Positions 50,426-54,982 of a stretch of DNA of 64,000 nucleotides are shown here, one piece after another. Numbering within the stretch: position 1 is the stretch's first letter; each line of letters starts with the position of its first letter. The notes under the pieces were generated by a model. It had not been told where the DNA came from. It made no database searches and saw nothing but the letters and a program-made list of their open reading frames with translations. The translations under genes were made by a program, and so were the position numbers. Source of the DNA: a plasmid; the sequence record NZ_CP085281.1. One strand, given 5' to 3'.

Positions 50426-51019
50426 CTACACCATTCTGGTCGCGTTGATGGCTGCGGCGTTGGCTTCTTCGGTGGCCTTGGTGGAGGCAATGGAGGCGAG
50501 CAACGCCGTCGCGGTTTGGGTGTTGTGTTCGGCGAACGCCGTACCGGCCGCCAGCTTGCTGGCTTGGAACTCCTTGATCTTGAGGTAGGTGCCGAAGTTC
50601 ACCTTGCCGTGCGTGGCCAGGTAGCGCTCGGGGAAGTCGGGGTCGCCGGAGGCCCACTCGGCGAGTTCCTGGGCGTTGAGTTGGTGGTCCTGGGCGAACT
50701 TCTCCATTTCGGCGTAGTTCAACCCGAACGGCGCTCCGGGCCCACCGGTTGTGTTACTCACCGGTGCCACTCCCCCGGAGACGCCGGGCCCGGGGCCGGC
50801 GCCGGGCGGTCCGACGGGTTCAGGCTCGAAGCTGCCCTCGGTGAAGTCGTGCAGCCAGTCGTAGTTGGGGTCCCCACCGGCGGTGTTGGTGACGTTGCTG
50901 ACCAGACTCGCCGGCACGGGGCCGATGGCGCTTGGGCCGGCCGCAGCACCCCCGGGGTCCACGGGTTCGTTGAAGTCGTGCCATCCCGGTTCGGTGAACC
51001 AGTTGTCGTTTTCGGACAT
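50426..51019 (-). CDS. paralog 3 (divergent) of the tandem family. Variable N-terminus plus conserved C-terminal helical domain
   Basis: C-terminal ..ATHGKVNFGTYLKIKEFQASKLAAG.. aligns with ..ATHGKVAYATYLNVKGFNESRQVEAG.. of the other two. Confidence 0.55.
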   Translation of the reverse strand: MSENDNWFTEPGWHDFNEPVDPGGAAAGPSAIGPVPASLVSNVTNTAGGDPNYDWLHDFTEGSFEPEPVGPPGAGPGPGVSGGVAPVSNTTGGPGAPFGLNYAEMEKFAQDHQLNAQELAEWASGDPDFPERYLATHGKVNFGTYLKIKEFQASKLAAGTAFAEHNTQTATALLASIASTKATEEANAAAINATRMV

Positions 51020-51040
51020 CGCGTCTCCAGTTCCTCTCGG

Positions 51041-51757
51041 TCAGATGCTGGTGGTGGGTGATTTGAAGGCGGCGGCCGAGGACTCATCGGTCGACCGGGT
51101 GGACTCGATCGCCCCCCGCAGACCGACGGCGGTGTCGGCGTTGCGCTGCGCATACGCACCCGCCTCCACCTGCCGACTTTCGTTGAAGCCCTTCACATTC
51201 AGATACGTGGCATAGGCCACCTTGCCGTGCGTGGCCAGCAGCCGATCGGCGAAGTCCTTCTCCGCGTCCGCCCACTGAGCCACCTGCCCGGCCTGCGCGT
51301 CATGCCCCTGCGCCAACCCCTCCAAATGGTGGTAGTTGACCTCGAACACGTCCTTACCCGACTTCCCGTCGGGGGCCGTCTTCTGGTAGCCGGCGGGGTG
51401 CGTCGACCCCGGAGCGTCTGGTCGATGGTCGGGCCACCACAGATCCGGATCGTTTCTGTCCTGCACATAATCGTGCATCCCGTAGGGCGGCAACTCGCCG
51501 GGAAAACTTGGCGACCAGCGGATCGGGTCGTCGCCGCCGGTGCCATGGATCCCGTCGAGGGTGGATCGTGGCATCCCCTGTGACGTGTCGAACTGCTGCT
51601 CGGGGATGTAGGGCGGGTACTGCGGCGTGTGGAAGGTGCCGTCAGGGTTGGGTTCCACTTCCGGATACATCGGGAAGGGCTGGAGGTCCTCGGGTGGGCC
51701 GGCCGGGTAGATGATGTGCGGCGGAGTCGGCTCCGGGGTGGGTTGCGGGGTGGTCAC
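51041..51757 (-). CDS. paralog 1 of the tandem family
   Basis: Pro-rich N-terminus. C-terminal domain KSGKDVFEVNYHHLEGLAQGHDAQAGQVAQWADAEKDFADRLLATHGKVAYATYLNVKGF.. nearly identical to paralog 2. Confidence 0.6.
   Translation of the reverse strand: MTTPQPTPEPTPPHIIYPAGPPEDLQPFPMYPEVEPNPDGTFHTPQYPPYIPEQQFDTSQGMPRSTLDGIHGTGGDDPIRWSPSFPGELPPYGMHDYVQDRNDPDLWWPDHRPDAPGSTHPAGYQKTAPDGKSGKDVFEVNYHHLEGLAQGHDAQAGQVAQWADAEKDFADRLLATHGKVAYATYLNVKGFNESRQVEAGAYAQRNADTAVGLRGAIESTRSTDESSAAAFKSPTTSI
51081..51373. repeat. 293-bp direct repeat, copy 1 (3' coding part of paralog 1)
   Basis: Differs from 51808..52100 at 3 positions, about 99% identity. Confidence 0.8.
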
Positions 51758-52566: not shown

Positions 52567-52570
52567 GGGG

Positions 52571-54982
52571 TTACTCCGTTCCTGCCGCGATGCGTTCTTG
52601 CCTGGTGGACCGGGTCGCAGGCGGTGGCGCGGCGCCTTCGAACGGTGACGGCGGCGCGGGCTGGGGCACCGTCGCACTGGGCTGCGGTGCGGGTTGCTGC
52701 GGCGCGGGCGCGGGTCCGGGCCCGGACAGCGGGACGCTGTCTGGCGGCGGCTCGGCAGGCACCGGTGTCGTCGGCGTCGGCGGAGCGGCCGGCGGCTGCT
52801 GCGGGGGCTGCGGTGCAGGCCCTTGATGATCAGCCGGCGGCGGAGCGGGCTGACCTGCCGGTGGTGGCGTCGCCGGCGGAGGTGAGCCGGCTGGGTGCGG
52901 CGCCTGGGGGTCGGTCAGGGGTGGCGCCGAGGTGTGCATTGACAAGGTGGGGTCCGTGGCAGTGGGGCGGAACACGCCCTCGAAGCCCTTCTGGTCCTTG
53001 AAGACGTCGTCGAGCGTGTGGGTGACGCCGGGGTGGTTGGGGTCGGCGACCAGTCCGGGCGCGACGGCCACCATGGTCTTGTCCTGCCACTTCAGCACGT
53101 CCCCCGGTTGCATGTCCGACGGGTCGACCTTGGCTCCGAGGTTCTTGCCGTCGCCGGGCAGCTCCAAGCCGGTGGGGCTGTAGGCCTTCTGCGCGGCATC
53201 ACCACCTGGGGACGCCTTGTCGAGAGCGTTCTGCGCCGCGTCGGCGGCCTGCTTGTTCGGCGCATCGACCACCTTGCCGTCCGGCAGCGTCACCGTCGGC
53301 TTGGTCGTCGCGTTGCCCGCAGGTGTAGCCGCGGGAGCAGCGGGTGCGCCGGCGGGCCCGGGCGCTCCAGGCGCCGCGACCGCCCCCGGTTCGGCGGATG
53401 TCCCGCCGCCGGCCGCGCTGGACGACGCGGGTGGCGGTCCGTTCTGCGGGCCGGAGTTCAGGGGGGTGATCGGCGACTTCTTGTCCTCGGGCTTGTCGTC
53501 GGCCCCGGACAGCTTGGCCAGCGGCTTGACCGCGTCGGCGATCGGTGAAAGCGGGTTGGCTCCCCCGCCGCCCATCGGGTTCGCGCCACCGAGGCCTCCG
53601 AGGGGGTTCATGCCACCGAGACCACCCAGGGGGTTGCCGCCCATCGGCATGCCGCCGAAGGGTGAGCCCATGCCGCCCAGGAGGTCCTTGAGGTCCTTGT
53701 TCTCGTCGGCGGGCGGGGAGGCCAACGAGGGATCGGCCGCGCCAGGCGGCATGCCCGCTGCGGGTGGCGGCGGTGTCATCGGGGTGGCCGGGCCGCCGGA
53801 GGGATTGGCCGGGACGTTCTGCGATGACTTGGCGGCGCTTTCGACCTCGGACTTGACGGTGTCGAGGAGTTTGGACTCTGCCTGCAGCAGACCGTGCCAG
53901 TCGCCCTCGTCGATCGTCTTGGCCGTCGAGTTGAAGGTGCCGATGGCGTTGTTGATGGCGTCGCGGCCGGCCTTGGTGACGTTGGCCGAATTCTGCACTG
54001 CGGTCTTGAATGCCTGTGCCGCCGCGTCGAATTCGGATTCGATCCGCTTGAAGTCACCTTTGACTTTGTCGTAGGCGTCGATGCCGGACTTGTCGCCGGT
54101 GTCGGTGCTGAACGGGAACTCGGGTAGTTCACTGGTCGCGGGCGTGCCGCTGCCGAAGAGTTCGTAGAGCTTGGCGACGACGCCGGTCATCTGATTGGGG
54201 ACGTCGGGGTCGACGTCGGTGGCCCACTCGGGGTACTGCGGGGTGGTCATGCCGTCCGGGATGTCCACCTTGGTGCTCTGCAGTGGCCCCTTGTGTCCGG
54301 GTGCGCCCGGTGGGGTGGGTTGCTGCGGTTGACCGTTCGGCGGCGGGGTTCCCTTGCCCGCCTCGTACTGGGTCTCCGGGATCGGCTTGCCGTTCTTGTC
54401 GAAATAGTCGGTTCGCCCGGTTGCCGGGTCCACCGTGTAGTAGTCCCCGTTTTTGTTGATCGGGGTCAGGATGGCGTTGGGGTCGGCCGGGTTGCCGTGC
54501 AACTGGGTACCGGGGGCCAAGAAGGCCTGCTGCGGTCCGATCTGGGTGCCGCGGGCGTCGACGGGCATGTACATCTTCCCGTCGGCACTGCGCCGATAGC
54601 CCAGGGGGTCGAAGGCGGGCCCAGTCGGTTTGAAGTTCTTGTCTGCCAAGGTGACTGAGCCGTCGGTGTTCTGGATCCAGTTCTTGCCGCTGGCCGCGTC
54701 GTGGTAGACGACGGTTCCGTCGTTGGGCAGCCGCGTCCCGTCACCGAACACCAGGAAGCGCTCGGAGCTGGTGTCGTCGGTGTTGTAGTGGATGTTGGGG
54801 TCACCGTAGGCGCTTTGAGCGTTGGCCTTGACGACCGTCCACACCGGGTCGTCCTTGCTGATGTAGCGGGACGGGTCGTCGGTCAGGGCCCACCCCGGCT
54901 CATGCCAGCCTTGCCCGTGGGAGGCGTCCCACGTGCGCCATGAGGTGGCGTCTCCGAACTTGCGGGCTTCGCTGTCAGTCAT
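52571..54982 (-). CDS. large secreted-like protein with WXG-like helical segment, Gly/Met-rich repeats and Pro-rich C-terminus (T7SS-substrate-like)
   Basis: 803 aa. Helical region ..FKTAVQNSANVTKAGRDAINNAIGTFNSTAKTIDEGDWHGLLQAESKLL contains a W-x-G. GGMGSPFGGMPMGGNPLGGLGGMNPLGG. N-terminal part has YD-like DYFDKNGKPI. Confidence 0.55.
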   Translation of the reverse strand: MTDSEARKFGDATSWRTWDASHGQGWHEPGWALTDDPSRYISKDDPVWTVVKANAQSAYGDPNIHYNTDDTSSERFLVFGDGTRLPNDGTVVYHDAASGKNWIQNTDGSVTLADKNFKPTGPAFDPLGYRRSADGKMYMPVDARGTQIGPQQAFLAPGTQLHGNPADPNAILTPINKNGDYYTVDPATGRTDYFDKNGKPIPETQYEAGKGTPPPNGQPQQPTPPGAPGHKGPLQSTKVDIPDGMTTPQYPEWATDVDPDVPNQMTGVVAKLYELFGSGTPATSELPEFPFSTDTGDKSGIDAYDKVKGDFKRIESEFDAAAQAFKTAVQNSANVTKAGRDAINNAIGTFNSTAKTIDEGDWHGLLQAESKLLDTVKSEVESAAKSSQNVPANPSGGPATPMTPPPPAAGMPPGAADPSLASPPADENKDLKDLLGGMGSPFGGMPMGGNPLGGLGGMNPLGGLGGANPMGGGGANPLSPIADAVKPLAKLSGADDKPEDKKSPITPLNSGPQNGPPPASSSAAGGGTSAEPGAVAAPGAPGPAGAPAAPAATPAGNATTKPTVTLPDGKVVDAPNKQAADAAQNALDKASPGGDAAQKAYSPTGLELPGDGKNLGAKVDPSDMQPGDVLKWQDKTMVAVAPGLVADPNHPGVTHTLDDVFKDQKGFEGVFRPTATDPTLSMHTSAPPLTDPQAPHPAGSPPPATPPPAGQPAPPPADHQGPAPQPPQQPPAAPPTPTTPVPAEPPPDSVPLSGPGPAPAPQQPAPQPSATVPQPAPPSPFEGAAPPPATRSTRQERIAAGTE

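Follow-up and report, generated by a model that had tools for sequence, protein, structure and literature searches.

Two sets of described systems are among the closest to the genes considered here. In ESX-1, a secretion system of type VII (T7SS), EspA/EspC and EspE/EspF are co-secreted pairs, which the YbaB-like proteins EspD, EspH and EspL stabilise (PMC6107294, PMC6319747). Conjugation of the plasmid pRAW, in turn, requires both a T7SS and a type IV secretion system (T4SS)-like system, and the eccC gene of ESX-P1 is itself needed; its authors proposed that ESX-P1 substrates take part in cell contact or in the mating channel, and to 10 or more further genes in the T4SS-like locus no function was given (PMC4173767). 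The terms “EspC”, “YbaB” and “FtsK” have 0 occurrences each in the text of that paper, in which neither an EspC-like pair nor DUF4226 hydrolases are mentioned (PMC4173767). Here we describe three adjacent paralogous genes, called A, B and C below, on a 64,000-nucleotide (nt) stretch of plasmid record NZ_CP085281.1, the whole of which we refer to as the window. We argue that their products are WXG100-like paralogs of the EspC branch encoded in the conjugation operon of an ESX-P plasmid, that they form a unit of one protein of subtype T2 and one of subtype T1, that the repeat shared by B and C has been homogenised by gene conversion, and that the unit would be exported by ESX-P and have a role at the cell envelope while mating takes place, a reading that we hold, as a whole, with moderate confidence.

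With EspC and EspF the three proteins share a helix-turn-helix domain of about 100 amino acids (aa) with a W...F...THG signature, and the gene order resembles those of espA-espC-espD and espE-espF-(espG)-espH, in which a large helical WxG/Gly-rich protein is followed by one or more EspC-like genes and then by a YbaB-like gene. The plasmid locus differs, however, in having two EspC-like subtypes in tandem instead of one and in being a conjugation operon and not a virulence locus, while its proteins differ in that the domain is C-terminal, placed behind Pro/Gly-rich modules of 90-160 aa, and is devoid of a YxxxD/E motif after helix 2. The large protein encoded upstream, p803, is, unlike EspA and EspE, not a detectable member of the EspA_EspE family. 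EsxA and EsxB, likewise the products of adjacent paralogous genes for helical hairpins of ~100 aa, supplied the best structural matches, but the plasmid proteins show no PF06013 match, no WxG at the turn, N-terminal extensions and 10-18% identity. The likeness to pRAW-type plasmids lies in a full ESX-P locus together with a block of TcpC-like, VirB4-like, FtsK-like ATPase, NlpC/P60 and SLT hydrolase genes. Members of the family are already known by the names that NCBI gives them, “type VII secretion target” or “ESX-1 secretion-associated protein”; we found no paper that describes together the family, the T2/T1 pairing, its place in the operon, the C-terminal EspC domain with swappable N-terminal modules and the concerted evolution.

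An EspC-family domain behind exchangeable N-terminal modules

The window has a G+C content of 66.8%, and A, B, C and p803 are four minus-strand open reading frames (ORFs) in it, at the coordinates given by the initial annotation. Gene A (50426-51019, minus strand; 197 aa; PF10824 21.3 bits; 48 homologous clusters) encodes a module, N_A, followed by a T1 EspC-like hairpin; gene B (51041-51757, minus strand; 238 aa; 21.5 bits) encodes a Pro-rich module, N_B, followed by a T2 EspC-like hairpin; and gene C (51754-52566, minus strand; 270 aa; 22.9 bits, E 1.2e-4) encodes the module N_C, a disordered linker and a second T2 hairpin. The GTG start of B overlaps the stop codon of C (GTGA). The longest ORF of C extends to 52677, and we set its start at MTTFD, position 52566, as in every homologue (15 homologues). 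In GenBank the three genes are represented by consecutive proteins, WZT99810-12, from a Mycobacterium avium subsp. hominissuis plasmid that measures 215,734 bp; the product of B is 100% identical to P0014 / WZT99811, and that of C is WZT99812, annotated as “ESX-1 secretion-associated protein”.

All three proteins end in a helix-turn-helix domain of ~100 aa that belongs to the EspC family (PF10824, T7SS_ESX_EspC). PF10824 is the only Pfam match at E<=0.1 for A, B and C, where it covers the last ~95 residues (E 1.2e-4 to 3.8e-4), so that the profile search led to the EspC family and to no housekeeping family, and several close homologues carry a precomputed PF10824 match. A profile made from 22 C-domains and searched against 1.84 billion representative proteins retrieved just 58 representatives, and 45 of the 47 more distant profile matches carry PF10824 (best E 5.1e-17). 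Aligned by hhalign with ten stand-alone PF10824 proteins of ~100 aa, the T1/T2 domain gave a probability of 99.5% and an E of 3.6e-22 over 95 columns. Judged by these profile comparisons, membership in the EspC superfamily is well supported, despite the marginal direct score. Altogether 70 homologous clusters were found, all organism-named sources being Mycobacteriaceae and two fetched loci coming from metagenome-assembled genomes (MAGs) labelled Actinomycetota. Searches of PHROGs gave no match for A, B, C, p803 or the YbaB-like protein.

Within the family the domain falls into two subtypes, T2 (..RLLATHGKVAYATYLNVKGF..) in genes C and B and T1 (..RYLATHGKVNFGTYLKIKEF..) in gene A, which are separate clades in the domain tree. 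LATHGKV and TYL are invariant across the family, and gene A, described initially as a divergent third member that keeps the C-terminal domain, indeed retains both. In an AlphaFold2 (AF2) model of the gene C product, the domain consists of helices 169-191, 196-204 and 209-257 (predicted local distance difference test, pLDDT, 65-74) and residues 139-166 are disordered. The top Foldseek matches of this model in the PDB are almost all WXG100/EsxA/EsxB proteins, with TM(target) scores of 0.75-0.83, E values of only 0.07-0.3 and identities of 10-18%; sequence-profile searches of the PDB with the C-domain returned chance-level matches or none, and PF06013 (WXG100) has no match at E<=0.1 in A, B or C. 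The predicted fold of the C-domain is a WXG100-like helical hairpin.

The N-terminal modules are of three kinds. N_C comprises three beta-hairpin units of ~35 residues spaced ~50 residues apart (residues 4-35, 53-88 and 103-137 of gene C, positions 52156-52557, minus strand), as seen in the alignment and in the AF2 model (pLDDT about 80-87); the units share the motif D[IL]xx[LV]xPGxLGPxGYxELxxxxGVWxPxP, which among the window and the 12 fetched loci is confined to this gene family, and the repetition is also visible in the DNA (52199-52245 / 52352-52398). N_B (PQYPPYIPEQQFDTSQGMPRSTLDGIHGT..) is conserved in 10 homologues, and N_A is Gly/Pro-rich with DWF..WHD..DPGGAAAGPGAIGPVPAxLxSN motifs. 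Family members of 110-120 aa carry no such module. Searches of Pfam, NCBIfam and PHROG gave no match for any of the modules. As the initial annotation held, the N-terminal halves of B and C are unrelated in that no significant similarity joins N_B and N_C; residues 84-123 of N_B resemble one N_C unit weakly, with a blastp E of 1.6e-4 without composition correction that hhalign did not uphold (probability 7%, P 0.005). The accompanying suggestion that the N-domains are diversifying does not hold, however, since these three distinct, Pro/Gly-rich modules are each conserved between plasmids: a comparison of the window with a metagenome contig, L021, gives nucleotide identities of 94% for N_B and 89% for N_C. 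By this comparison the modules are not hypervariable; they are swapped or lost as blocks. N_B is found fused to T1 in P0048, P0059 and P0068, and an N_C-like module is joined to a T1-like domain in P0019.

Concerted evolution of the two T2 domains

The T2-coding parts of gene B (repeat copy 1, 51053-51373) and gene C (copy 2, 51781-52101) make up a direct repeat, free of gaps and offset by 728 nt, which was delimited by a repeat search (51053-51352 versus 51781-52080, 97%) and by base-by-base comparison. Its core, 51080-51373 versus 51808-52101 (294 nt, 99%), contains mismatches only at 51290, 51311 and 51356, all three of which are third-position and synonymous; chance cannot account for a match of this length and identity. 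The repeat had initially been given as 293 bp with 3 mismatches, and both the repeat and the count were right, but the second interval, 51808..52100, implies an offset of 727 and is one base off. The 5' boundary of the repeat is abrupt, at 51373/51374, precisely where the N-terminal modules begin, and at the 3' ends of the genes the copies lose their identity by degrees, over ~27 nt (51053-51079).

The same trio of genes is present in Mycolicibacterium sp. Y3 (MGJ6127452-54, on a 223,647-bp contig) and in the ENA metagenome contig L021 (138,813 bp; a MAG). Because the trio recurs in Y3 and L021, and hence in at least three independent assemblies including that of the window plasmid, the repeat is not an assembly artefact, and this candidate was rejected. 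A simple tandem duplication was rejected as well, since no more than 321 of the 728 nt are repeated. Gene conversion could still be dispensed with if a very recent tandem duplication or an artefact of assembly had produced the repeat, an account to which we lend hardly any credence: it can point to direct repeats placed 728 nt apart and to the breaking of short-read contigs at the repeat, yet a duplication would have to reconcile the partial repetition just mentioned, the identity of T2(B) and T2(C) within a plasmid next to a distance of about 9% between plasmids, and a relic in M. simiae that shows the same pattern. As to the short reads, exactly 66 nt precede the gene A orthologue in each of the Logan contigs L022, L023 and L024, and short-read assemblies therefore break at the T2 repeat. 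The locus will consequently be systematically fragmented or collapsed in short-read data.

Over the first 300 nt of the T2 region, the number of sites that separate C from B is 7 in the window and 1 in L021, whereas comparing the window copies with those of L021, in whichever combination, shows 24-29 differences (about 9%), 20-23 of them synonymous. In Y3, both B and C have HDSQ, ADQLL and TALGL, and in the MAG behind L021 both have YHQL, EGMA, ADADK and TAIGL, all of which are lacking from the window copies. The M. simiae relic of C is identical to the T2 region of its own B at 117 of 123 nt, versus about 75% identity to the window copies. In the domain tree the T2 domains cluster by plasmid lineage, with N_B- and N_C-bearing genes interleaved. 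The conversion tract is bounded on its 5' side by the point where homology ends, which falls at the same codon in the window and in L021, and its 3' ends vary between lineages, which argues for independent conversion events. Orthologues of N_B and N_C are shared by the three trio plasmids, which makes B older than the split between them; and since the T2 copies are nevertheless near-identical within each plasmid, gene conversion must have acted repeatedly. The recent conversion that the initial annotation had considered is hence borne out by near-identity within plasmids as against a mostly synonymous distance of about 9% between them. Read from the sequences, the T2 domains evolve in concert by gene conversion, a pattern seen in three or four lineages. 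In kind this is ordinary, because gene conversion among paralogous T7SS substrates (esx, PE/PPE) is well documented in M. tuberculosis (PMC12046097, PMC13061034).

The trio had been taken as the basic unit of the array, but the comparison of loci assigns this role to a T2 + T1 pair. Copy-number variation was read from genome and metagenome contigs, PLSDB having one such plasmid: the M. avium plasmid p1-JPH1 (NZ_AP020327.1) is the sole PLSDB plasmid matching a T2 query, and with eleven loci from genome contigs it makes up the set of 12 fetched loci. All 12 have a single complete T2 gene with one T1 gene directly behind it. One T2 and one T1 gene are therefore the usual state, and the trio, in which B is the extra T2 gene, is a variant; both C and B are present only in the window, Y3 and L021. 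The T2 gene of the pair carries N_C in L001, L002, L004-L008 and L011, N_B in L003, L009 and L010, and no module in L012.

Traces of a lost or rearranged gene are found in several relatives. In M. simiae (L009), a relic lies directly upstream of B, a 47-codon mini-ORF made of MTTFD and the last 42 residues of T2. The second gene of p1-JPH1 begins with MTTPQPT, the start of B, and runs straight into T1. In L017, the closest relative of the window, C is followed by N_B fused to T1, and relative to the window 647 nt are missing, equivalent to T2' + N_A. L026 encodes a 266-aa hybrid of N_C, T2 and a B-type tail, followed by gene A; the hybrid is suggestive of the product expected from recombination between the two repeats, but it comes from a short-read Logan contig in which a collapsed repeat is possible. 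These traces, and the relics in L009 and L001 in particular, favour an adjacency of C and B that is ancestral and older than the three trio plasmids; the slow-grower sublineage may have had the trio from the outset, or N_B may have been inserted.

The conjugation operon and the rest of the window

Positions 40000-64000 of the window are syntenic with p1-JPH1 (84% identity over 76% of the query). The genes form a tightly packed operon, conserved across the fetched loci, with the order p463, FtsK/SpoIIIE ATPase, p116, p374, p803, T2 gene, T1 gene, YbaB-like gene, p661, DUF2694-like gene and Rv1815-like serine protease, and in 12/12 loci the genes for p803, T2, T1 and the YbaB-like protein follow one another in this way. 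Upstream in the window lie genes for an NlpC/P60-like protein and for an 806-aa protein, whose counterpart in p1-JPH1 is annotated as “ATP-binding protein” and which we take to be VirB4-like; a nearby p1-JPH1 gene annotated as “conjugal transfer protein” we take to be TcpC-like. The operon is the T4SS-like block of a conjugative plasmid. The complete ESX-P locus of p1-JPH1 comprises genes for an AAA ATPase, eccB, eccCa, PE, PPE, esx, espG, MinD/ParA, eccD, mycP and eccE. Elsewhere on p1-JPH1, far from the conjugation operon, a second, small cassette (L016; 106,350-108,167) encodes a DUF4226 protein, one hypothetical protein and a “type VII secretion target” of 107 aa; the T1/T2 profile detected no equivalent of it in the window.

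The gene for p803 (52571-54982, minus strand; 803 aa) lies directly upstream of gene C, and its product is a partner-like protein. In its AF2 model, for which 45 sequences were used, the N-domain (residues ~10-210) is beta-rich, with pLDDT values above 90, and there is a helical hairpin at 304-385 (304-356, 362-385), with W362-H-G364 at the turn (nt 53891-53899); this tripeptide is invariant in seven orthologues. Residues 396-559 are disordered and Gly/Met/Pro-rich, and residues 560-675 form a conserved and confident alpha/beta C-domain, after which comes a long Pro-rich tail that is disordered. The hairpin with W362-x-G364 and the Gly/Met-rich region thus uphold most of what had first been noted about this protein, but the “YD-like motifs” also ascribed to it were not confirmed, there being no Pfam match and only weak Foldseek matches: those of the N-domain are beta-propeller-like (E >= 0.005, TM <= 0.23). 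Neither p803 nor its central segment matches PF18879 or PF10774 even at E<=10, isolated segments give nothing meaningful in Pfam, and the sequence-profile search of the PDB with the p803 family yielded chance-level matches or none. Distant full-length homologues of p803, however, match PF10774 (DUF4226) at residues 221-338, a segment that aligns with the hairpin of p803 (25% identity, E 9e-5). The final ~25 residues of the p803 protein (52571-52640; PSPFE..PPATRST..ERIAAGxE) are near-invariant in seven orthologues and form a short predicted helix. ERIAAGxE is invariant at the C-terminus, and this end of the protein could be a recognition signal.

Directly downstream of gene A lies a gene for a 125-aa protein (50039-50416, minus strand) with a PF02575 (YbaB_DNA_bd) match of E 0.0063. 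That a YbaB-like gene follows the array, as initially proposed, agrees with PF02575 matches in 10/10 orthologues (best 9.1e-5), all of them sub-threshold (17.1 bits for the window protein versus a cutoff of 25.5); the sequence-profile search of the PDB with this family retrieved no YbaB structure. The gene adjoins the T1 gene in 12/12 loci, and its product is, by sequence, a candidate EspD/EspH/EspL-like chaperone. In L017 (2303-2845) and L026 (5810-6355) an extra gene of ~180 aa, absent from the window, comes right after the YbaB-like gene, and the one in L026 has an above-noise PF02575 YbaB_DNA_bd match.

Several wall hydrolases are encoded in the operon (p374, 58992-60383 and 60380-61366), several of them with T7SS-substrate-like helical domains. 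The p374 protein (55044-56168, minus strand) combines a weakly EspA_EspE/DUF4226-like helical N-region, a Gly/Met linker and a peptidoglycan-hydrolase-like C-domain; the latter (residues 241-363) matches the mycobacteriophage tape-measure-embedded module phrog_9228 (1.9e-24) and an endolysin (1.3e-9) and contains WHPNGLAID...HMDHVH, which resembles a LAS-type metallopeptidase motif. It is present in L002-L010 and, as its C-terminal part, in L012, and is absent from p1-JPH1, L011 being too short to cover it. In p463 (58992-60383, minus strand) a Pro/Ala-rich region is combined with a DUF4226/EspA_EspE-like domain and an SLT lytic transglycosylase (PF10774 3.2e-10, PF01464 3.8e-7, PF18879 3.4e-4), the DUF4226 match overlapping the EspA_EspE match. 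The third wall hydrolase (60380-61366, minus strand) has a sub-threshold NlpC/P60 match. Between p463 and p374, a gene for a 784-aa FtsK/SpoIIIE-family membrane ATPase (56636-58990, minus strand; PF01580 E 2.4e-17) occupies the same place in the order in the 10 loci that reach that far upstream; from its sequence it could be either a coupling protein or DNA translocase, or an alternative exporter of the substrate-like proteins.

On the downstream side, p661 (48103-50088, minus strand) is kept in all loci. It has a Pro/Thr-rich centre, a 78-nt tandem duplication (49127-49153 / 49205-49231; ..SGNDTSPG..) and, at its C-terminus, a weak BTAD-like match (E 0.047). It is followed by a gene for a 111-aa protein (47756-48091, minus strand) with a weak DUF2694 match (PF10904, E 0.013), syntenic in 11 loci. 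Beyond the operon, genes for an ImmA/IrrE-type metallopeptidase and an ADP-ribosylglycohydrolase adjoin each other at 43369-44472 (minus strand) and 44393-45781 (plus strand), and in this region the latter alone is matched, at the DNA level, by a Rhodococcus ruber plasmid. Two TnpB (OrfB_IS605 / Cas12f-like TNB) genes lie at 2929-4458 (minus strand) and 25474-26727 (plus strand), and the 3' end of the first is overlapped by an Rfam RF03015 “Transposase-2 RNA” match (2932-3000, minus strand; 68.2 bits, E 1.4e-11), the place expected of a guide (omega/re) RNA. A second, shorter FtsK/SpoIIIE-family ATPase (6345-7565, minus strand; 406 aa, PF01580 E 3.8e-17) is encoded far from the conjugation operon. 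A cytochrome P450 (304-1767, plus strand), a WhiA homologue with all three WhiA domains (10149-11219, minus strand) and an ATP-dependent, LigD-like DNA ligase (33081-34352, plus strand) each have a counterpart in p1-JPH1. Finally, a 659-aa ORF with no Pfam match (27766-29745, minus strand) overlaps long opposite-strand ORFs (27785-28774, plus strand), the third-position G+C being very high on both strands.

Proposed export by ESX-P and its alternatives

The model that we favour can be set out as follows. The functional unit would consist of one T2 and one T1 protein, and the plasmid lineage of the window has two T2 genes, C and B. A conversion tract of 294-321 nt repeatedly homogenises both T2 domains, so that the carriers of the two N-modules expose the same T2 surface, and conversion would in this way keep the N_B and N_C carriers compatible with a single T1 partner; at the same time, the direct repeats would promote loss of the 728-nt unit, by which a trio returns to a pair. 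T2 and T1 may form a heterodimeric four-helix bundle, or each may pair with the WxG hairpin of p803; the protein encoded downstream, being YbaB-like, may stabilise T2/T1; and the ESX-P system of the plasmid may export them. Heterodimer formation, chaperoning and export are all inferred from the analogy with EsxA/EsxB, EspA-EspC-EspD and EspE-EspF-EspH. Once outside, T2/T1 could act in the cell envelope during mating, either by displaying their N-modules or by helping the DNA-transfer channel and the hydrolases across the wall.

Several observations weigh against this model. The direct PF10824 scores of 21.3, 21.5 and 22.9 bits, though they extend over 90-94 of 100 profile positions, stay just below the gathering cutoff of 23.5, and NCBIfam gave no match for A, B, C or p803. 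The turn of the T1/T2 hairpin is without W-x-G, reading QWADAEKDF in T2 and EWASGDPDF in T1, and the canonical YxxxD/E signal is absent after helix 2, where ..STRSTDES.. (T2) and ..STKATEEA.. (T1) have no Tyr; the invariant YxxxE of these domains is found where helix 1 begins (A, Y102; B, Y142; C, Y169). The helical domain is moreover C-terminal, whereas T7SS substrates known to carry extensions have the reverse order. The 64-kb window contains no ESX core gene, the ESX-P locus being the one found in the sister plasmid p1-JPH1, about 72 kb from the pair. Homogenisation of T2, lastly, could be neutral, with no selection for a common partner. The initial annotation's view of a T7SS/ESX-associated substrate family, as opposed to housekeeping genes, is sustained by PF10824, by the WXG100-like hairpin and by the sister ESX-P locus, but the array stands in a T4SS-like/FtsK operon and not in an ESX locus.

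It is conceivable that the substrate-like proteins (T2, T1, p803, p374 and p463) are exported by the 784-aa FtsK/SpoIIIE ATPase of the operon, which with the WXG100-like proteins would make up a self-contained minimal export system coupled to DNA transfer. The motors of T7SSs, EccC/EssC, themselves belong to the FtsK/SpoIIIE ATPases and recognise substrates of the WXG100 type, every locus extending far enough has an FtsK-like gene 3-4 genes upstream, and in p1-JPH1 the module is distant from the ESX-P locus. We nonetheless think this unlikely, because the protein has one partial FtsK domain (residues 359-470) versus three in EccC, because FtsK proteins with a single such domain usually serve Gram-positive conjugation as DNA translocases or as coupling proteins (TcpA/TraB type), and because ESX-P1 eccC is needed for pRAW conjugation (PMC4173767). 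By a broader account, the T4SS-like locus has a full T7SS cargo set of its own, with a T2/T1 heterodimer, DUF4226/EspA-like hydrolases and YbaB-like chaperones, exported by either ESX-P or the FtsK-like ATPase; the T2/T1 pair, as a polymer or at the surface, would then be the part of the mating apparatus that spans the envelope and makes contact, much as has been proposed for EspC filaments, and the N-modules would set partner recognition or surface exclusion. This, too, we consider improbable, but if true it would explain why both systems are needed in transfer.

It might also be supposed that nothing is secreted at all and that the proteins, in the cytoplasm or associated with the membrane, have a structural or regulatory place in the conjugation machinery or link up its hydrolases as adaptors, the EspC-like hairpin being a dimerisation module only. 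That helical hairpins are generic interaction modules, that a canonical YxxxD/E signal and a signal peptide are both absent, and that proteins of the YbaB family can bind DNA (PMC6107294) would all fit such a role; we find it doubtful in view of the strong PF10824 membership in profile-profile comparison, of the co-occurrence of the family with an ESX-P-bearing plasmid, and of neighbours in which EspA/DUF4226-like domains are fused to wall hydrolases, which must leave the cytoplasm and show no Sec-type features in the parts examined. Very improbable, finally, is a polymorphic effector/partner array of the toxin-immunity kind, to which the initial annotation had also alluded and in which the N-domains would be the payload and the conserved domain the delivery handle. 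LXG and other polymorphic T7SS toxins do resemble the trio in joining a conserved T7SS-type helical domain to modular, exchangeable parts, and some distant PF10824 proteins have 450-600 extra residues. In LXG toxins, however, the domains stand in the reverse order; the N-modules, which are short, conserved and rich in Pro/Gly, have no toxin domain or other enzymatic signature; there is no adjacent small immunity-like gene and no PHROG match; and the genes are fixed in the conjugation operon in 12/12 loci.

Returning to export by ESX-P, the label “ESX-1 secretion-associated protein” under which such products are filed claims more than is known. If our model is true, the T4SS-like locus holds an espACD-like cassette together with EspA/DUF4226-like wall hydrolases, all of which would be candidate ESX-P substrates, and it would thus provide a testable link between the two machines. 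The trio itself is a clean natural case in which gene conversion is limited to one domain and repeats mediate the loss of genes, within a T7SS substrate family carried on plasmids, and the same process shapes the esx and PE/PPE antigens of M. tuberculosis.

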